Positions 14,546 through 26,335 of a stretch of 36,067 bases of DNA are shown here, piece by piece. A program made the position numbers and the translations under genes. Numbering within the stretch: the stretch's first letter is position 1; every line of letters begins with the position of its first letter. This DNA comes from Bacilli bacterium (GTDB lineage: Bacteria > Bacillota_I > Bacilli_A > RF39 > UBA660), in the NCBI GenBank assembly GCA_007117285.1, contig SKGW01000013.1:1-36067 (forward strand), given 5' to 3'. The notes below the pieces were generated by a model that saw only the letters and a program-made list of their open reading frames with translations, ran no database searches and was not told the origin of the DNA.

Positions 14546-14893
14546 ATGTATAGAAAACTCGGAAGAGATAATAAACATCGTAGAAGTATGTTAGCTAATC
14601 TTACTAGAGACTTAATTATGAATGAAGAAATCAAAACAACAGAAACAAGAGCAAAAGAAGTTCGCAAATTTGTTGATAAAATGATTACACATGGTAAAAA
14701 AGGAACTCTAGTTTCCAGAAGAAAAGTATTAGCATTTTTCCACAACGACAAAGAAGTTGCTGAAAAAGTTTGTGATGTTTTAGCAAAAAGATTTGAAAAT
14801 AGAGATGGTGGATACTCAAGAATCATCAAATTAGATGAAAGAAGAGGAGACAACGCTTTAATAGTTGTAATTAAATTAGTTGAAGAAAAGTAG
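14546..14893 (+). CDS. rplQ: 50S ribosomal protein L17
   Basis: MYRKLGRDNKHRRSMLANL N-terminus. It is the last gene of the alpha operon. Confidence 0.96.
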   Translation: MYRKLGRDNKHRRSMLANLTRDLIMNEEIKTTETRAKEVRKFVDKMITHGKKGTLVSRRKVLAFFHNDKEVAEKVCDVLAKRFENRDGGYSRIIKLDERRGDNALIVVIKLVEEK

Positions 14894-14910
14894 AGAAATC
14901 TACTTTTTTT
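14890..14910 (+). terminator. Short rho-independent terminator after rplQ
   Basis: GTAGA-GAAA-TCTAC hairpin (5 bp) followed by a T7 run. The stem is short, so termination is probably leaky. Confidence 0.5.
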
Positions 14911-14972: not shown

Positions 14973-14993
14973 TTAAAAGTAGAGGTGAACTAG

Positions 14994-17900
14994 ATGATAA
15001 ATGGAACACGTAACAAAATAAAAAATTTAAAAGAGAAAAGAAAAAAGTCCTTAAGGGGCTTTTCTTTGGTGGAACTGTTGGGAGTGATTATACTTTTAAC
15101 AGTTATATTTATGATTGCAACACCAATCGTTTTAAATGTAGTTGAAGATGCTAGAAAATCAGCATTTGCATCAACTGTTTCTTCATTAGTGAAGATCACA
15201 GAAAATGATTGTTTGCAAAGTAGAATTTTTGGGGAGCCAGAAGATCACTATATAGTGTTTGAAAATGGTCAGCAAGAAGGCGAAAAAATAAGTTTTTCCG
15301 GTAGAGCACCGGAAACAGGAACTATTTATGTAACAACGGATTGTAAAGTTGCTTATACACTTCACGATGGGAATTGGTGTGCAGTTAAAACTTTTGAATC
15401 GGCTAATGCTGAAACACACAAAATTTCACCAGAACAGTGTAATTTTGAATACTTTGGAATTTCTACTACAGAGGGAATATTTGAATTAATTGCATTAGGG
15501 TATTTACCAATTTCAAGTATTGAAGATTTACAAGCAATAGGTCAGGGTGAGGCTGATAGAATATGGGGCGAAAGCTCAAGGTTTTCAGTTCAGGGAACTG
15601 GAACAATGACTTCAAATTATGTTATTGTGCAGAACCTAGATTTAACAAGCGTTAATTTTGAACCAATCGGATATCAAATCGGCAACGGTTATGATAGTTT
15701 TGAAGGAATCATAAACGGATATAATCACACATTATCTAATGGAGATATTGATTTTTTAGGTGACAACTATATTGGTGGATTAGTTGCTTATCTTGGAAAT
15801 AACGGCATTATTAGAAACATTAACTTAGAAGATTACTATGTTAGAGGGAACTTAAACGTAGGAGGAATAGCAGGGTTAAATAATGGTGTCATCCAAAATG
15901 CATCATTTACTTTAACAGTAGAAGGAACCGACAATGTTGGTGGAATAGCAGGGAATAACCAAGGTGATATATTTAATAGTGAAGTTACTTCAGTTTTAAT
16001 TGGTGAAAATCAATCATTTGGAAATGATATTGGATTAATATGCGGAGCAGGAACGTGTCCGCTAGTGACAAATGGAAACACAGCTGTTGGTGATATCATT
16101 TATAATTTTTATGATATAGTATTTAATGCAAACGGTGGAGCATTTACAACTATTGAGGGGAACCCAGTAACTGTAACTTCAACAGTGGCAAGAAATACAG
16201 TAACCTCAGAACCAGAAATACCAACGAGACAACATTATGAATTCTTGTGGTGGTTAGATGGAGCAACGCCGTATAATTTTTCAAATTTAGTTACAAGCGG
16301 AAAGACACTTCAAGCACATTGGGGTGTTACACTAGAAATATCAGCACCATTTGAACCAACATGGACTGTTTTAGCAACGAGTATAACAGCAGACATTTCA
16401 CTAGTTGCAAATGCAGATCAATATCGCATTAAACAAACAAGTGAAACAGAATGGTCAGAGTGGGCGGGTAATAATGTATTTACTAATTTACTACCATATA
16501 CTGAATATGACTTTCAAGCTCGTTCTCTAGATCCTTCAGTTTTGGGGAGTATCGCAACATATAGAACTCCAAAATTGGATAATGATGTTCCGGAATTTAC
16601 AGGAACAATAAACTGGACAATTCAAGTAGGAAACGTTACTGCAGAAGTTCCAAATGTTGGAGTAGGTGCAGAATACCGTGTTAATGGCGGAAGCTGGCAG
16701 ACGGGAAGAACATTTTCGTCATTAAATCCAAATGTTGAATATACATTTGAGGCAAGAATGGCGGAAACAGGAACGCACAATGCATCATTAGTTTCAAGTC
16801 CAATTATAGAAACAAGTCCAAAAGCCAATCAAACAATTGGAACTTTAGGAAGTCCATCATGGACAGTTCAAGAAGGAACAGTAACGGCAAGCTTACCTGC
16901 ATTAACAGGAGCAACTCACTATCGAGTTAATGGTGGAACATGGCAGACAGGAACAACATTTGCATCATTAAGCCCAGTAGTTGAATACACGTTTGAAGCA
17001 AGAAAAGCAGAAACAGCAACATTGAATGAAGTAATAAGTAATTCCGTTGCATCAACAAGTCCAAAAGCAAACCAAGCAGCACCAGCGCAACCATCATCAT
17101 CAAACTTACTGTTTGATAGAGTAACAATAACAGGAGCTGCAGGAACACAAGTAAGACAAGGTGTTGCAGGAACTGGATATAACACACCATACACATTTAC
17201 AGGACTGACACAAAATACATCATATAGTTTTTATGCATTCAGACCAGCAACAGCGACACTAAATGCCTCACCAAACAGTGTGGCAAGAACAGTAACAACA
17301 CCATTGCAAGTAGTAGCACCAGGTTTACCAGGAGCATTTACAAGTCCATCAGGAACATTGTTTAGAAATCAAACAGTAACAGTAACATGGGGAGGAACAG
17401 GTTCATGGGGAGTTCCAACATCAGGTCAGAATTATCGATTAGAAATTCAATATGATGCAGGAGCATGGAACTTAGTAGCTAATAATGGAACTTCAACAAC
17501 AAGAAGCCATACACTTGCAAGTGCGGGAAACTCAGTAAGATTTAGAGTAAGAGCAGAAAATTCAAGTGCTCAATCAGATTGGAGATATTCAAGTACATTA
17601 ACATTAACGTCTCCAGCTTGGGTGCTTACAACAGATAACTATCCATCAACACATTATTCAGGGTGTGATACAAGAAAAAATAGACTTCAAATAGGTTCGA
17701 GTTGGGTATACGGAGTTGGAACAATAGCAACTACTCCTGATGGCTGTTCAAACGCAAGTGGAGTTACAATATGGAGCGGTGACTTTCACTTATATGAATG
17801 GCGTGTTACTTTCTTAAGTGGTCCAGATACTTCAGTATGGGGATCAAATGCAACACTAAGAGCAGAATGGCCTTATACACTTCTTTATGGATATGATCCT

Positions 17901-18035
17901 CAGTTTACAAGTGCCGGACAGTCCTTCATATTTGACTCTGCAAGACACATAACTGGTTCACAATGGATCTTTGCTCCAGAAGAAACTTATGGAACGTCAT
18001 ATTTAAGAGTTGAACGAAGATTAAAAGTAAATTGA
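14994..18035 (+). CDS. Modular type IV pilin-like surface protein (prepilin signal and pilin head, GLUG-like beta-helix, Listeria-Bacteroides repeat, five Fn3-like modules, orphan C-terminal domain)
   Basis: An AGAGGTGA RBS precedes the start. The 22-aa basic leader ends in G, followed by FSLVELLGVIILLTVIFMIATP (class III signal, with E5 and P22 in mature numbering). GG[IL][AV]G repeats are spaced 26-29 aa apart. DIVFNANGG...HYEFLWW...LQAHW fits a Flg_new-type repeat. Repeated WT(V/I)..G.VTA...YRVNGG.WQTG..F..L.P.VEYTFEAR modules follow. Confidence 0.85.
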   Translation: MINGTRNKIKNLKEKRKKSLRGFSLVELLGVIILLTVIFMIATPIVLNVVEDARKSAFASTVSSLVKITENDCLQSRIFGEPEDHYIVFENGQQEGEKISFSGRAPETGTIYVTTDCKVAYTLHDGNWCAVKTFESANAETHKISPEQCNFEYFGISTTEGIFELIALGYLPISSIEDLQAIGQGEADRIWGESSRFSVQGTGTMTSNYVIVQNLDLTSVNFEPIGYQIGNGYDSFEGIINGYNHTLSNGDIDFLGDNYIGGLVAYLGNNGIIRNINLEDYYVRGNLNVGGIAGLNNGVIQNASFTLTVEGTDNVGGIAGNNQGDIFNSEVTSVLIGENQSFGNDIGLICGAGTCPLVTNGNTAVGDIIYNFYDIVFNANGGAFTTIEGNPVTVTSTVARNTVTSEPEIPTRQHYEFLWWLDGATPYNFSNLVTSGKTLQAHWGVTLEISAPFEPTWTVLATSITADISLVANADQYRIKQTSETEWSEWAGNNVFTNLLPYTEYDFQARSLDPSVLGSIATYRTPKLDNDVPEFTGTINWTIQVGNVTAEVPNVGVGAEYRVNGGSWQTGRTFSSLNPNVEYTFEARMAETGTHNASLVSSPIIETSPKANQTIGTLGSPSWTVQEGTVTASLPALTGATHYRVNGGTWQTGTTFASLSPVVEYTFEARKAETATLNEVISNSVASTSPKANQAAPAQPSSSNLLFDRVTITGAAGTQVRQGVAGTGYNTPYTFTGLTQNTSYSFYAFRPATATLNASPNSVARTVTTPLQVVAPGLPGAFTSPSGTLFRNQTVTVTWGGTGSWGVPTSGQNYRLEIQYDAGAWNLVANNGTSTTRSHTLASAGNSVRFRVRAENSSAQSDWRYSSTLTLTSPAWVLTTDNYPSTHYSGCDTRKNRLQIGSSWVYGVGTIATTPDGCSNASGVTIWSGDFHLYEWRVTFLSGPDTSVWGSNATLRAEWPYTLLYGYDPQFTSAGQSFIFDSARHITGSQWIFAPEETYGTSYLRVERRLKVN
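16608..17075 (+). repeat. Tandem imperfect direct repeat (two ~225-nt units with a ~246-nt period) encoding adjacent Fn3-like modules
   Basis: Unit A is 16608-16832 and unit B is 16854-17075. Both encode ...WT(I/V)Q.G.VTA..P....GA.YRVNGG.WQTG.TF.SL.P.VEYTFEAR.AET.T.N....S....TSPKANQ. Confidence 0.85.
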
Positions 18036-18060
18036 CAAATTTAAATCATTTTGTTAAAAT
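18032..18060 (+). promoter_or_regulatory. Near-consensus sigma-A promoter driving the T-box leader and proC
   Basis: TTGACA (18032-18037, overlapping the mega-pilin TGA stop), a 17-nt spacer containing TGt, then TAAAAT (18055-18060). Confidence 0.6.
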
Positions 18061-18066
18061 TAATGA

Positions 18067-18316
18067 AATCAAAAAGCATTGATCGAGAATTATTACAAAA
18101 TAATTAGCAATTAAGAGAAAGAATCAAATAGGTGAAAGATTCTATTGTGAAAATTTGGAACCTCTCTCGCTAGCTGCAAGCGAAAGCTTAGCCGTATCCA
18201 GTAACGTTACAAACTGGCTGATATCGCTTTTTGCCGTATCGGAAAAAGATAATTCATTTGAATTAACAAAGGTGGTACCGCGAACTTCGCCCTTTAATTA
18301 GGGTGGAGTTTTTTTA
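18067..18316 (+). promoter_or_regulatory. T-box riboswitch leader with a probable proline (CCU) specifier
   Basis: Stem I distal motifs are AGAGA (18114-18118) and GGTGAAAG (18131-18138). GAA-CCT lies at 18158-18163. An F-box-like CGTTA sits in the hairpin CCAGT..ACTGG. The T-box sequence is AAAGGTGGTACCGCG (18268-18282). The canonical antiterminator has helix A1 AAAGG/CCTTT, a 7-nt bulge TGGTACC and helix A2 GCGA/TCGC. The competing terminator pairs 18286-18293 with 18300-18307 and is followed by a T7 run. Confidence 0.85.
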
Positions 18317-22404: not shown

Positions 22405-22423
22405 AGATTAATCTACACTTTTA
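22398..22423. terminator. Bidirectional terminator between convergent trxB and the P-II-like gene
   Basis: AGTGTAGA-GATTAA-TCTACACT hairpin (8 bp), flanked by an A-run upstream and a T-run downstream. Confidence 0.75.
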
Positions 22424-23068
22424 ATTTGATCTTTTCATTCCATAAGTATTAGTTACTGATTGAACAAATAGAATTCCATTTCCTGGTTTTTCAATTTCTA
22501 AGTCTTCGGTAATTGCTTTGACTATATTATCTGTTATTTCGCTCTCTGCTAATATTAAAACAACTTCTTTTTCGGGCTCAATTTCCATTGAAAACAACTT
22601 GCTAGTTTCGTGTATTCCAGATCCTCGAGCATTAATAATGGTTCCGCCTTTAGATCCGGCTTTGTTAGCTGAATCAACAACATCAACGGCACGACCTTTA
22701 TCGACAACAACATAAATACAATTAAACATACTTTCCACCTCTACTTTATTATCTGGGTTAGATTTGTTTTTAGAACCGGTAAAATAATTTATACTTGAAG
22801 AAAAGCCAATTCCATTTTGTTTTTCTTTTAATTTTAATTTTTCTTCTATAAAGGGCATTGTAGCATTGGAAATTCTATCCTCTGCAACCATTAAAACTAT
22901 TTCTTTCCTAGTATCACATATACCAAGTACATCTAAAAGTTTGTCATCAACTGTACCTTTACCAAGGAAAATAGTTCCGCCAGTAACTCCCTTTTTTTTG
23001 GCTAATTTTAAAACTTTGCTTCCGATTCCAAAGTCTACTATAACAACCATTAAGCTCAGATTAGTCAT
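22421..23068 (-). CDS. Tandem P-II-like signal-transduction protein (two fused P-II-fold domains)
   Basis: 215 aa. Both halves (about 5-95 and 118-210) follow the beta-alpha-beta / loop / beta-alpha-beta pattern. The second half, IYVVVDKGRAVDVV...GGTIINARGSG...VVLILAE...GNGILFVQSV, aligns with GlnB-type P-II. Its start overlaps the upstream stop in a TAATG junction. Confidence 0.7.
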   Translation of the reverse strand: MTNLSLMVVIVDFGIGSKVLKLAKKKGVTGGTIFLGKGTVDDKLLDVLGICDTRKEIVLMVAEDRISNATMPFIEEKLKLKEKQNGIGFSSSINYFTGSKNKSNPDNKVEVESMFNCIYVVVDKGRAVDVVDSANKAGSKGGTIINARGSGIHETSKLFSMEIEPEKEVVLILAESEITDNIVKAITEDLEIEKPGNGILFVQSVTNTYGMKRSN

Positions 23069-24522
23069 TAAACACCCTCCTTTTTGGATTTTAGTTTAAA
23101 CATGATACCTAATATTTGTAGCGTTATGATAGGAACTAATGCAACGAGTGCAATCATTCCAAATCCATCAGATAAAACAGTTGCTCCTTCAGTTGCTGTT
23201 GCAACACCGTGCATAAACGCTAGAATAAATGTCGCTGTCATTGGACCAGAGGCAACACCACCTGAATCAAATGCAATTCCAACAAATAGATTTGGTGTGA
23301 AAAGCATTAACAAAATTGCAATGCCGTATCCAGGTAGTAAAAACAACCATAAATCTAATTGATATTTAATTTTAATGATTGAAAGAACAATTGCCAGACC
23401 AACACCAATTGCTAGAGATGCAATTACGAATTTCCTTTTTATGTACCCAGCTGTGACCTCTTCAATTTGTTTAGTTAAAACGTATACTGCGGGCTCTGCA
23501 AGAATTGTTGTCATTCCTAATATAAAACATAAGAACAATATTAGAGTAAAATTTTTGTTAGCAAGAGTATGCCCAATTTCTCTTCCGACTTCAAGAAAAC
23601 CAGAGTTAACACCAACTAAGAAAAATATCATTCCAATAAAAGTATACAAAAGACCTTTCTGAATTATTTTCAACTGTCTTCCTTCAAATTTAAAGGAAGT
23701 TTTGTTGAATAATATAAATATTAATAGTATTGGGAGAAGTGCTAAAACTACTTCGCTTGTTATTGATTTTACAATATTAAAAAAACTCAAACTTTCATTT
23801 GCACCCATGTTTTCCAATGGTATAAAGTTACCTTTTGAAATATTGACTAGCAACATTATTATTATGACGCCTGCTGAAACTATTCCAACTAAACCAAAAC
23901 TATCTTTTGCGGAGTCAGTACTGTTTTTATTTAGTTTAGCAATACCTAGAGTTAGAGCTAAGATAAAAGGAACCGCCATCGCTCCTGTTGTGGCTCCTGA
24001 TGTATCAAATGCAATTCCCATCAATTTGTTTGGTGAGAGTGCTGCCAGTAATAAAATTATTGTGTATAAAATCAACATTGTCTTTTTTAATGAAAAATTC
24101 TTAACAATTCTCGTAAGACCATAAGAGAATGAAAGACCAATTCCAATTGATGCTACCACAATAATCATAATATTATTAATAAAACCGTTTGAAAAATAAT
24201 CAATTTGCTTTGCAATTATGTGTAGGTCTGGTTCGGCAACTGAAATGAAAAATCCAAGGAAAAATCCACCAATAATAACAATCCACATTTTATTTTTTTT
24301 CGCTAGGTTTTCACCCATTATATTTCCAATTGGAGATATTGAAAGATCAACACCTAATAAAAATATTGCAAGGCCAAGAATTGTGAGTGCAGATCCAGTT
24401 ATAAACTTAAGTAATAAATCGTTTGATAAAGGCGCAATTGTTAAATGTAACATTAAAACTAGCAATACAACAGGTGCAACGGCAAAAACGACTTCTTTTA
24501 TTTTATGTAACAATATTTTCAA
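23068..24522 (-). CDS. Internally duplicated polytopic membrane protein, DUF1538-like putative transporter
   Basis: 484 aa with a TTG start after a GGGGG RBS. The two halves share motifs: ...ISVAEPDLHIIAKQI / ...TILAEPAVYVLTKQIE and IAFDTSGATTGAMAVPFILAL / IAFDSGGVASGPMTATFILAF. The DUF1538 assignment is from memory of the family and its usual P-II neighbour. Confidence 0.6.
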   Translation of the reverse strand: MKILLHKIKEVVFAVAPVVLLVLMLHLTIAPLSNDLLLKFITGSALTILGLAIFLLGVDLSISPIGNIMGENLAKKNKMWIVIIGGFFLGFFISVAEPDLHIIAKQIDYFSNGFINNIMIIVVASIGIGLSFSYGLTRIVKNFSLKKTMLILYTIILLLAALSPNKLMGIAFDTSGATTGAMAVPFILALTLGIAKLNKNSTDSAKDSFGLVGIVSAGVIIIMLLVNISKGNFIPLENMGANESLSFFNIVKSITSEVVLALLPILLIFILFNKTSFKFEGRQLKIIQKGLLYTFIGMIFFLVGVNSGFLEVGREIGHTLANKNFTLILFLCFILGMTTILAEPAVYVLTKQIEEVTAGYIKRKFVIASLAIGVGLAIVLSIIKIKYQLDLWLFLLPGYGIAILLMLFTPNLFVGIAFDSGGVASGPMTATFILAFMHGVATATEGATVLSDGFGMIALVALVPIITLQILGIMFKLKSKKEGV

Positions 24523-24608: not shown

Positions 24609-24637
24609 TTGACTATGAAAAGTTGTTGTGATATATT
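24609..24637 (+). promoter_or_regulatory. Promoter of pilin paralog 1
   Basis: TTGACT (24609-24614), a 17-nt spacer ending in TGa, then TATATT (24632-24637). The conserved 5'UTR GTAAGATAAGGAGGG follows. Confidence 0.6.
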
Positions 24638-24663
24638 GTTATTGTAAGATAAGGAGGGTAATT

Positions 24664-25158
24664 ATGAATAAGAAAGGTTTTACACTAATCGAACTATTGG
24701 CGGTAATCGTTGTACTAGCAATCATCTTATTAATAGCAATGCCAATCGTACTTAATGTTATTAATGATGCAAGACAAGGTGCTTTTGATGCAACTGCACA
24801 AGGTATGGTTAAAGCAGCTGAAAATGAATATATGAGAGGTGCCTTAGACAACAGCGTTGAAGAAAAGTGGTATGAATTTGCAGGTGGAGTTCAAACTGTT
24901 TATGTTTGCGAAACTGAAGCTTGCCTTAACAGTATCGTGGATGCTGGTGCTGACAAATTAAACTTCTCAGGTCAAGGACCGGATACAGGAACAATTTATG
25001 TTGCTGCAGATGGAGAGATCGGAATGTTTATAAGTGATGGAACATATTGCTCACAAAAAGAAGTTGGAAAAAACACTACTGTTGCAACAACACAAGCAGA
25101 ATGTCCGACATCAGGAGAACCGGGATCATTATACTATGACGTTGTTAGACCACAGTAA
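24664..25158 (+). CDS. Type IV pilin-like protein, paralog 1 (prepilin-type N-terminal cleavage/methylation motif)
   Basis: MNKKG|FTLIELLAVIVVLAIILLIAMPIV (E5 and P22) with an AAGGAGGG RBS. The head motif is FSGQGPDTGTIYVAADGEIGMFISDGTYC. The ORF-track start at 24628 is a UTR read-through. Confidence 0.88.
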   Translation: MNKKGFTLIELLAVIVVLAIILLIAMPIVLNVINDARQGAFDATAQGMVKAAENEYMRGALDNSVEEKWYEFAGGVQTVYVCETEACLNSIVDAGADKLNFSGQGPDTGTIYVAADGEIGMFISDGTYCSQKEVGKNTTVATTQAECPTSGEPGSLYYDVVRPQ

Positions 25159-25165
25159 AACTAAA

Positions 25166-25188
25166 GGAAGATTTTCTTCCTTTTTTTT
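25166..25188 (+). terminator. Rho-independent terminator of pilin 1
   Basis: GGAAGA-TTT-TCTTCC hairpin followed by a T8 run. Confidence 0.75.
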
Positions 25189-25218
25189 GTCCACTTGTAA
25201 AGAAAATCACTTTGCATA

Positions 25219-25248
25219 TTGACTGATTAAACATTAACATGATATATT
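25219..25248 (+). promoter_or_regulatory. Promoter of pilin paralog 2
   Basis: TTGACT (25219-25224), an 18-nt spacer with TGa, then TATATT (25243-25248). The same GTAAGATAAGGAGGG UTR follows. Confidence 0.6.
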
Positions 25249-25274
25249 TAAACAGTAAGATAAGGAGGGAAATT

Positions 25275-25736
25275 ATGAATAAGAAAGGTTTTACATTAAT
25301 TGAGCTATTGGCGGTAATCGTTGTATTAGCAATTATCCTATTAATAGCAATGCCAATTGTACTTAATGTTATTAATGATGCTAGACAAGGTGCTTTCAAT
25401 TCAACGGGTTATGGATTGGTGAAAGCAGCAGAGAACGAGCACATGAGAACAGCACTTGAAGGCGGAACAATAATGGAAACGACATATAACTTCGCAGGTG
25501 ATGTTTCAGCATTAGACTTTTCAGGAGAAGCACCAACTCACGGAACAATCTTTGTTGCAGTAGATGGAACAATTGAAATGGCCGTTACAAATGGAGCTTT
25601 CTGTGCTGTAAAAGAATCTGATTCAACTGAAGTAAAAACATATACTTGGTCTGAATTGCAAGCAGAAGCAGCATATACAGCAGTAGCCATTAATAACATA
25701 ACTACCGATTGTAACGTTGCAACATTAATGCCATAA
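25275..25736 (+). CDS. Type IV pilin-like protein, paralog 2
   Basis: Its first 40 aa are identical to paralog 1 (MNKKGFTLIELLAVIVVLAIILLIAMPIVLNVINDARQGAF). It has FSGEAPTHGTIFVAVDGT...NGAFCAVK and a C-terminal CNVATL, which could form a Cys pair. Confidence 0.88.
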   Translation: MNKKGFTLIELLAVIVVLAIILLIAMPIVLNVINDARQGAFNSTGYGLVKAAENEHMRTALEGGTIMETTYNFAGDVSALDFSGEAPTHGTIFVAVDGTIEMAVTNGAFCAVKESDSTEVKTYTWSELQAEAAYTAVAINNITTDCNVATLMP

Positions 25737-25742
25737 CACTAA

Positions 25743-25765
25743 ACAGAATTTAATTCTGTTTTTTT
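25743..25765 (+). terminator. Rho-independent terminator of pilin 2
   Basis: ACAGAAT-TTA-ATTCTGT hairpin followed by a T-run. Confidence 0.8.
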
Positions 25766-25810
25766 CTTGTCATTAAAGAGACAAAAAGAAATTAAAAATA
25801 TTGACTATAT

Positions 25811-25840
25811 ATTATTTGTTGTGTTATATTAATATTGTAA
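25811..25840 (+). promoter_or_regulatory. Promoter of pilin paralog 3
   Basis: TTGACT (25811-25816), an 18-nt spacer with TGt, then TATATT (25835-25840). The same GTAAGATAAGGAGGG UTR follows. Confidence 0.6.
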
Positions 25841-25858
25841 GATAAGGAGGGGAAGAAA

Positions 25859-26335
25859 ATGAATAAGAGAGGTTTTACATTAATTGAATTATTAGCAGTA
25901 ATCGTCGTATTAGCAATCATCTTATTAATAGCAATGCCAATTGTACTAAGTGTTATTAATGATGCTAGAGAAGGAGCTTTCAATTCAACAGGTTATGGAT
26001 TGGTGAAAGCAGCTGAGAATGAGCACATGAGAAATGCACTTGATGGTGGAGTTATGGCAACTCAAACTTACACTTTTAATGAAGCTGGTGATGGTACCGG
26101 TAACACTTTGCTGGACTTTTCAGGAGAAGCACCAACTAGTGGATCAATAGTTGTTGAAGTTGATGGAACTACATACATGGCTATTTCAAATGGAGCATTT
26201 TGTGCAGTTAAAGCATATAACTCGACAGAAGTTATTACTTATGATGGAGATGGACTTAATGAAGCTTTTACAGAAGCTACAAACGGAATAGCTCATTGTA
26301 ACGTGGCTACTTTAACAAGCTTAGCAACACCATAA
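25859..26335 (+). CDS. Type IV pilin-like protein, paralog 3
   Basis: MNKRG|FTLIELLAVIVVLAIILLIAMPIVLSVINDAREGAF N-terminus. It has FSGEAPTSGSIVVEVDGT...NGAFCAVK and CNVATL motifs. Confidence 0.88.
   Translation: MNKRGFTLIELLAVIVVLAIILLIAMPIVLSVINDAREGAFNSTGYGLVKAAENEHMRNALDGGVMATQTYTFNEAGDGTGNTLLDFSGEAPTSGSIVVEVDGTTYMAISNGAFCAVKAYNSTEVITYDGDGLNEAFTEATNGIAHCNVATLTSLATP

Follow-up and report, generated by a model that had tools for sequence, protein, structure and literature searches.

A candidate modular type IV pilin of 1013 residues with an adhesin-type stalk, encoded behind the ribosomal alpha operon of a Bacilli bacterium

Can a pilin carry an appendage of about 860 residues, and does a protein that looks like such a pilin end up on a type IV filament or stay in the membrane as an adhesin of its own? 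This question is raised by a gene on a contig of a Bacilli bacterium (GenBank assembly GCA_007117285.1, contig SKGW01000013.1), which was analyzed over its whole length of 36,067 nucleotides and is called the window here. The gene lies directly 3' of rplQ, as can be seen in the open reading frame (ORF) map and in public gene calls, and encodes a protein that a sequence-only reading of this DNA had described as a modular 'mega-pilin', a name that we keep. In our assessment the mega-pilin is probably, though by no means assuredly, a modular type IV pilin that takes a rare, tip-proximal position and displays an adhesin stalk.

The mega-pilin ORF is intact and ends with a stop codon (Table 1). The sequence upstream of it, read directly, contains the strong Shine-Dalgarno sequence AGAGGTGA, no alternative in-frame start is found in the sequence between Met1 and Gly22, and independent gene calls on contigs from ENA and Logan begin at the identical position. 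The window was compared with two public assemblies, contig k141_26846 of ENA ERZ27301260 (37,137 bp; locus L001) and a contig from Logan SRR7083930. The latter shows no differences from the window, and k141_26846 carries substitutions at 9 of 23,042 positions when compared with positions 4994-28035, none of them in the mega-pilin gene. Since the gene is identical across two independent assemblies, the ORF is no assembly chimera; nine substitutions relative to the ENA contig and none relative to the Logan contig therefore mean that at least two very close strains were sampled. No antisense ORF within the gene exceeds 91 aa, and we take these minus-strand ORFs to be spurious.

At its N-terminus the protein carries a class III (prepilin) signal, i.e. 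a hydrophilic leader ending in Gly or Ala that is followed by about 21 hydrophobic residues, usually with Glu5. The leader, MINGTRNKIKNLKEKRKKSLRG, contains nine Lys or Arg residues and a single acidic one; after its last residues (KKSLRG) follows FSLVELLGVIILLTVIFMIATP, in which Glu and Pro occupy positions 5 and 22 of the mature protein (Glu5, Pro22). This FSLVE-type stretch is the sole hydrophobic segment of the protein and there is no second membrane segment. The class III signal with a basic 22-aa leader that had been read from the sequence is confirmed. A six-frame motif scan of the window detected exactly four class III motifs, those of the mega-pilin and of three small pilins. Two relatives with the identical GFSLVELLGVI signature (P0042 and P0044) carry the N-methylation family PF07963. 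Sortase anchoring was considered and rejected: in a hydrophobicity and motif check of the whole protein neither LPXTG or LPx[TSA]G nor a C-terminal hydrophobic window was found, and the protein has no C-terminal anchor.

The signal is followed by a pilin head. Residues 21-132 align over 129 aa with the small pilin encoded at 24664-25158, with 37% identity and a pairwise E value of 5e-31. In the head alignment G22, F23, E27, P44, C129 and K132 do not vary, and the strands 'SG.aP..G.i.v..DG' are kept as well; the homology to the three small pilins that had been proposed is borne out by these positions. The loop-flanking Cys129 and Cys149 have counterparts in the paralogues, and the conserved pair presumably forms a disulphide. 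When a profile of the module (alignment A4) was compared with the PDB, the best match was Streptococcus sanguinis PilE1 (8pfb; E 4.2e-12, profile positions 6-105), which runs well past the N-terminal helix. Further matches were geopilins, MshA (6.6e-10), Thermus thermophilus PilA5, PAK pilin (3.6e-7) and GspG (1.3e-3). AlphaFold2 modelling of residues 1-165 from a 10-sequence alignment gave a mean predicted local distance difference test (pLDDT) score of 81, with a helix at 25-79 (55 residues) and strands at 85-90, 108-113, 119-124, 129-132 and 140-142. In its order of secondary structure elements this prediction is as expected for the pilin 'lollipop' of a roughly 53-residue alpha1 helix and an antiparallel sheet.

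The N-terminal half of the helix (alpha1N) is nearly superimposable between the mega-pilin and its small paralogues (FSLVELLGVIILLTVIFMIATPIVLNVVEDAR versus FTLIELLAVIVVLAIILLIAMPIVLNVINDAR), which fits their co-assembly in a single filament core, since such a core needs matching alpha1N segments. The small pilin genes themselves (24629-26335) are tandem duplicates in which a 209-nt unit of upstream and 5' coding sequence recurs with 85% and 76% identity. The first ~40 residues of small pilins 1 and 2 are identical; divergence affects the heads and the C-terminal tails.

The length of the leader had also been taken as a likeness to type IVb pilins. This analogy did not hold, as the head is paralogous to pilins with 5-aa leaders and leader length does not discriminate. 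The subtypes are not separable by it, and type IVb pili have been reported from Proteobacteria only (PMC10191384). A type IVb assignment was rejected: only the long leader fits it, the relatives come from Bacillota- or Mollicutes-type metagenome-assembled genomes (MAGs), and no machinery is clustered with the gene.

Behind the head the protein continues through a series of modules, and the map drawn in the sequence-only reading (GLUG, Flg_new, four Fn3-like modules, a fifth Fn3 module and an unassigned C-terminal domain) agrees with ours within a few residues. The GLUG domain, presumed to be a beta-solenoid, contains units of the type [IV]GG[IL][AV][GA] at residues 260, 289 and 315, and residues 163-385 are matched by about 40 large surface proteins with a homologous repeated unit. 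GLUG repeats are associated with M26 (IgA1 protease/Zmp) peptidases. A protease role by this connection was rejected: the HExxH motif is absent from the whole mega-pilin and no peptidase family of Pfam matches it, and because HExxH is missing the GLUG region is not a Zmp-type protease. Next to it stands a Listeria-Bacteroides repeat (Flg_new), which we take to correspond to IPR013378.

The four tandem modules M1-M4 (residues 446-772) comprise about 80 aa each and share 26-54% identity with M2 (alignment A3). Their homologues include a Firmicutes SLH-type surface protein (P0003) and two Bacteroidota proteins with Por_Secre_tail, the sorting domain of the type IX secretion system (P0047 and P0048), in which the linker ANQAAPAQP also matches. 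Compared with known structures, a profile of 11 homologous modules matched FN3con (4.2e-5) and the FnIII domain of chitinase A1 (1k85; 0.0038). Pfam fn3 stays sub-threshold, at 23.3 bits for the whole protein against a cut-off of 25 and at 13.7-14.3 bits for single modules. By these profile matches M1-M4 and the fifth module may be called Fn3-like. The fifth module is 48% identical (E 4e-27) to the Fn3 module of a 653-aa pilin, P0046. In the hidden Markov model scans by which the earlier reading could be checked, Glug and Flg_new scored above their Pfam cut-offs, and N_methyl, TIGR02532 and fn3 remained below theirs. A full-length composite alignment (A2) was not used; in it MAFFT had stretched fragments and misplaced Fn3 rows. 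The appended modules belong to the adhesin or surface-protein type.

At the end of the protein lies an orphan domain that matches neither a Pfam family nor a PDB sequence. A phmmer search of 1.84 billion representative proteins returned the protein itself and one artefact, and no genuine homologue. The artefact, P0045, was rejected as a homologue; this 945-aa protein consists of 11 perfect repeats of ~86 aa, i.e. a translated tandem DNA repeat. Single-sequence AlphaFold2 gave an all-beta model that is unreliable (pLDDT 45.7). Its Foldseek neighbours (CUB, carbohydrate-binding modules, the collagen-binding domain of collagenase and Ena2A) are non-significant, with E values of at least 0.007 and template modelling (TM) scores of at most 0.48, so these resemblances may hint at a generic beta-sandwich only. 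Residues 873-1013 are nevertheless the likeliest candidate for a ligand-binding end, and the domain is a candidate for a new ligand-binding fold.

Table 1. Features of the mega-pilin gene and of the small pilin paralogues in the window
Feature	Position	Strand	Residues	Evidence or description
Mega-pilin ORF	14994..18035	+	1013 aa	intact, terminated by stop codon
Basic leader peptide, class III (prepilin) signal	14994..15059	+	22 aa	last residue Gly22
Pilin module	15060..15458	+	23-155	alpha1 helix, beta-sheet head, Cys129/Cys149 flanking C-terminal loop
GLUG-repeat domain	15459..16103	+	~156-370	Pfam Glug 32.7 bits (cut-off 20.5), three stretches
Listeria-Bacteroides repeat (Flg_new)	16104..16328	+	373-442	PF09479 28.5 bits (cut-off 27), profile 1-65 of 65
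Four tandem related Fn3-like modules (M1-M4)	16329..17309	+	446-528, 529-611, 612-692, 693-772	
Fifth, divergent Fn3-like module	17310..17609	+	773-872	FN3con 4u3h, E 0.0076
Orphan C-terminal domain	17610..18035	+	873-1013	Trp/Tyr-rich, 7 Trp, 9 Tyr, Cys891/Cys918
Ribosome-binding site AGAGGTGA	14981-14988	+		ATG 5 nt downstream; sequence read directly
Terminator-like hairpin and T-run	14883..14910	+		overlaps rplQ stop codon; RNA fold
Small pilin paralogue 1	24664..25158	+	164 aa	5-aa leader MNKKG; TIGR02532 32.4 bits (cut-off 16.3)
Small pilin paralogue 2	25275..25736	+	153 aa	TIGR02532 33.0 bits
Small pilin paralogue 3	25859..26335	+	158 aa	TIGR02532 33.4 bits

Furthermore, relatives of the mega-pilin were collected. 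No homologue of the full-length protein was found among 5.8 billion clustered proteins, nor a close relative when JGI metagenomes were scanned with it, and a word-indexed search with the pilin module alone yielded only three matches. The pilin-module family is frequent among MAGs whose titles read uncultured Bacilli, Mollicutes, Tenericutes, Mycoplasmatota, Erysipelotrichaceae and Clostridia. The samples behind these MAGs include human gut (Hadza and other), mouse, rabbit and rumen. In one related locus (L027, of the MAG 'Bacillota bacterium OH_CBlB_40') the gene order holin-lgt-[pilin]-rplI-dnaB (68%)-M23-MBL-rlmH-murA (70%) is syntenic with that of the window. In 80 related loci 125-131 ORFs with a prepilin motif and a median mature length of 188 aa were detected; among 125 of these prepilins, 52 reach 300 aa, 19 reach 600, six 800 and three 1000.

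Pfam scans of the largest relatives showed N_methyl together with surface-protein modules. The longest, a prepilin of 2674 aa from the MAG Clostridium sp. NALB_7821b_8 (L005:9992-18016), reaches N_methyl at the cut-off, carries five LCCL modules besides sub-threshold Big_7 and fn3, and far exceeds any modular pilin cited in a 2021 survey. Other examples are a prepilin of at least 1057 aa with three Bact_surface_Ig-like modules and HYR (L015), one of 1030 aa with Flg_new (L029), one of 887 aa with Lcl_C and sub-threshold Glug, whose head is 42% identical to that of the mega-pilin (L007), and one of 873 aa with an ALK_LTK glycine-rich domain and SH3 (L003). In the uncultured Bacilli MAG CAKPHH01, five tandem prepilin genes for ~672-681 mature residues with near-identical N-termini (L043:2146-12907) suggest an array of paralogous large modular pilins. 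Modular pilins that share the head type or modules with the mega-pilin further include P0019 (600 aa), P0023 (735 aa, with leucine-rich repeats) and the unannotated P0046 from Logan SRR22184554-6, which is closest in architecture. Judging from these sequences, modules have evidently been shuffled among pilin carriers. The mega-pilin had been called an extreme case. It is indeed longer than the 860-aa extreme of the published survey (PMC8179133), but public MAGs also contain larger prepilins (2674, at least 1057 and 1030 aa), so that it is not a size record.

How the mega-pilin would reach the surface can be outlined on the basis of the prepilin biogenesis pathway (PMC10191384), and from the features above we infer cleavage, polymerisation, a tip position, adhesion and a ligand. 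The single hydrophobic alpha1N helix would be inserted by Sec and the signal recognition particle, with the basic 22-aa leader left in the cytoplasm. An A24 prepilin peptidase encoded elsewhere in the genome would cut after Gly22, so that the mature protein would start with FSLVELLGVIILL... and Glu5 would follow Phe1 in its usual place. Subunits would then be extracted and polymerised by an ATPase-platform motor, and the pilin module of ~130 aa would dock via alpha1 into a filament in which one, two or all three of the small paralogues would predominate. At the tip, the mega-pilin would hold out its GLUG solenoid, its Flg_new repeat and a stalk of five Fn3 modules that would act as a spacer. 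At the end of the stalk the aromatic-rich orphan beta domain would be the likeliest to bind a ligand. The linker between pilin head and GLUG domain comprises about 10 residues. A rare, tip-proximal position, like that of S. sanguinis PilB and PilC (PMC8179133, PMC10191384), is the most plausible one, because an appendage of ~860 aa is joined to the head through so short a linker. Machinery encoded beside related pilins in some related MAGs lends the pilin reading indirect support: a T2SSF platform and an A24 peptidase adjoin a related pilin in L047, a T2SSE ATPase adjoins four tandem pilins in L034, and full PilB/PilT/PilC/PilD sets occur in L055 and L073.

Several observations weigh against this assignment. 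The mega-pilin scores 16.9 bits with Pfam N_methyl (cut-off 21.2) and 11.5 bits with TIGR02532 (cut-off 16.3), and because of these sub-cut-off scores signature-based screens would overlook it. Its 22-aa leader is atypical of its pilin family, in which the mode is 5 aa and only one of 125 related prepilins reaches 22 aa. Foldseek returned no PDB match for the model of the pilin module at E <= 0.001 (best E 0.43, TM below 0.2), so the pilin fold is backed only by topology and the sequence profile; the miss is probably due to a model dominated by a single long helix. In the 36-kb window, searched in six frames with 15 seeds, there is no prepilin peptidase, PilB/PilT/TadA ATPase, PilC/TadB/TadC platform or TadE, and when extension of the contig was attempted via its terminal genes no longer contig was found on record. 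We know of no pilin of this size for which transit of an ~860-aa appendage through the pilus machine and the cell wall has been proven. Finally, tip-capping subunits have been described as lacking Glu5 (PMC10191384), a residue that the mega-pilin possesses.

The main rival explanation is that the class III signal, cleaved or not, is a membrane anchor only and the mega-pilin is a monomeric, wall-spanning adhesin without any filament. We regard this as possible but rather unlikely. No assembly genes lie near the mega-pilin gene, and only about 6 of the 80 related loci have ATPase, platform or peptidase homologues within 10 kb. Most related pilin genes, that of the mega-pilin included, are scattered away from machinery, and the large pilins are dispersed among housekeeping genes. 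An eight-domain stalk could extend to the surface on its own, and the many large prepilins per MAG resemble an adhesin repertoire. On the other hand, a mere anchor would not need the complete, conserved head with its Cys129/Cys149 pair and 37-42% identity to small pilins; Glu5 is conserved as well, and the same contig retains three small pilins from which a filament could be built. Still less probable is that the mega-pilin is a minor pilin of a Com pseudopilus or of another non-adhesive type IV filament whose modules capture DNA or a substrate. Among the type IV filaments of Bacilli, Com pili are the most common (PMC10191384), and the best partial NCBIfam matches of the small pilins are to the N-termini of ComGC, ComGD and GspG. 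These matches, however, cover the N-terminal helix only and lie far under the equivalog cut-offs, with at most 29.6 bits for the small pilins against the Com models. The mega-pilin itself reaches 12.5 bits with ComGC (cut-off 75) and 12.9 bits with ComGD (cut-off 70), so that neither model is matched at equivalog level. Moreover, arrays of GLUG, Flg_new and Fn3 typify surface adhesins rather than DNA binding, and a comG-like operon is not adjacent.

Very improbable, finally, is a shaft subunit that would occupy the whole length of the filament and turn it into a bottle-brush fibre covered with stalks. Glu5 is present as in shaft pilins, and Raynaud et al. did not exclude a position within the filament body, given a flexible linker (PMC8179133); the linker of the mega-pilin between head and GLUG domain is nevertheless short, steric crowding would be expected, and the three small paralogues are better candidates for major subunits. 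Among the explanations considered, a rare, tip-proximal modular pilin is therefore the one that we favour.

Beyond the related loci with conventional machinery, Tad-like loci were observed in two MAGs, Erysipelotrichaceae RUG14093 and a rabbit-gut Bacilli bin (L050:79-7164 and L057:14190-18762). They comprise two TadE-like genes, a ParA/TadZ-like ATPase, a T2SSE ATPase (437-444 aa) and T2SSF proteins. In L050 a pilin of 341 aa with a GFTLIELL-type signal is encoded directly 3' of the ATPase, an odd pairing of a type IVa/Com-like pilin with Tad-type machinery.

Regarding the expression of the mega-pilin gene, the terminator-like hairpin at 14883..14910 lies between the ribosomal alpha operon and the pilin gene; RNA folding gives a 12-bp A/U-rich stem of -11.8 kcal/mol (z -3.8 versus shuffles). 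As the promoter-like match upstream of the gene is weak (9/12), transcription may occur by read-through or from a weak promoter of its own. GC content is higher in the 3' half of the gene (0.39-0.40 versus ~0.32), but at third codon positions (GC3) it amounts to 0.11-0.22 per module compared with 0.17-0.26 in housekeeping genes and is host-like. Recent horizontal transfer of the GC-richer half was rejected on these grounds; since the GC3 of every module matches that of host genes, the rise reflects amino-acid composition.

Some neighbouring elements were noted as well. Right after the mega-pilin stop codon, within 18032-18311, there is a near-consensus promoter (11/12, TTGACA-17-TAAAAT, TG-extended). 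Behind it lies a T-box leader upstream of proC (18070-18297; 91.2 bits, under the Rfam cut-off of 93), to which a terminator hairpin at 18282-18311 preceding proC belongs. Since the triplet aligned at the specifier position is CCU (Pro), proline-responsive control of proC fits. Immediately upstream of the small pilin cluster and divergent from it lies a minus-strand gene pair (22421-24522) with a 1-bp overlap. One product is P-II-like (215 aa), the other is a DUF1538 membrane protein (484 aa), and neither has an evident link to the pilins.

If the mega-pilin is loaded onto a filament, it would be a test case for how large a cargo can get through the machine of a type IV pilus and through a monoderm wall, and it would show how far the grafting of modules onto pilins can go. 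The relatives suggest that big adhesins carried by pilins have expanded across the lineage and that uncultured gut Bacilli may depend heavily on them. A broader proposal, which we put forward only tentatively and consider doubtful at present, is that in uncultured Bacilli, Mollicutes, Tenericutes and Mycoplasmatota MAGs from gut, rumen and sediment the prepilin N-terminus has become a general display device for a very large adhesin repertoire, in the role that LPXTG and sortase anchoring plays in other Bacillota, and perhaps served by unconventional machinery such as a Tad-like locus. Large pilins of hundreds to more than 2600 residues, several per genome and in part in tandem arrays of ~675-aa proteins, would then form this repertoire, with the mega-pilin as one example. 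Published surveys based on the N_methyl signature likely undercount big modular pilins, as suggested by the failure of the mega-pilin to reach that signature and by larger relatives of up to 2674 aa.

When compared with known systems, the mega-pilin most resembles the modular minor pilins of S. sanguinis, PilB with a vWA module and PilC with a lectin module (PMC8179133; PMC9934059). The likeness comprises a monoderm host, a class III signal with Glu5, a small pilin module, a short linker, non-pilus modules and coexistence with small major pilins, and the best PDB match of the mega-pilin profile is PilE1 of the same species. PilB and PilC, however, carry one grafted module at ~50 kDa, whereas the mega-pilin has eight modules of five types at ~108 kDa. 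They are encoded together with the machinery in a pil cluster, whereas the mega-pilin gene is isolated behind rplQ; the PilB leader has 7 aa instead of 22; and adhesion, which has been demonstrated for PilB and PilC, is in the mega-pilin a property we infer. Closest in architecture is P0046, a lone gene amid housekeeping genes that combines a pilin module with an Fn3 module and a GLUG region (E 1e-7). It differs in its order pilin-Fn3-GLUG, lacks Flg_new, the Fn3 array and the orphan domain, and has a 5-aa leader.

Modular pilins as surveyed in 2021 comprise more than 1,200 proteins in 264 architectures, of which the largest cited is an 860-residue pilin of Candidatus Falkowbacteria, and Dataset S1 of that survey lists pilins with IPR011493 (GLUG; 6 proteins), with IPR003961 (FN3; 12 as well as multi-copy) and with IPR013378 repeats (Raynaud et al. 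2021, PMC8179133). The 1013-aa mega-pilin exceeds the cited extreme, and its sub-cut-off N_methyl score would have hidden it from that screen. Every recognisable module type of the mega-pilin is already fused to a pilin signal in that dataset, in the case of Flg_new by way of the assumed IPR013378 correspondence; the combination of GLUG, Flg_new, five Fn3 modules and an orphan domain is unlisted there, and later surveys of giant pilins may exist. CofB of enterotoxigenic Escherichia coli and TcpB of Vibrio cholerae likewise join a pilin module to extra beta-rich domains, and they are located at the tip and initiate assembly (PMC8179133, PMC10191384). They belong to the proteobacterial type IVb clade and have two extra domains, whereas the head of the mega-pilin is paralogous to short-leader Bacillota pilins. 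PilY1/PilC of diderm type IVa pili are also large modular tip adhesins with variable N-terminal modules (PMC8179133), but they are non-pilins that dock onto minor pilins through a beta-propeller; in the mega-pilin the pilin itself is the carrier. Overall, the mega-pilin unites a pilin module with Glug, Flg_new and Fn3-like domains that are not pilus-specific, the combination by which modular pilins are defined. It leaves the modular-pilin concept itself unchanged and is an unusually large example of the modular pilins already described, not a new kind of system.

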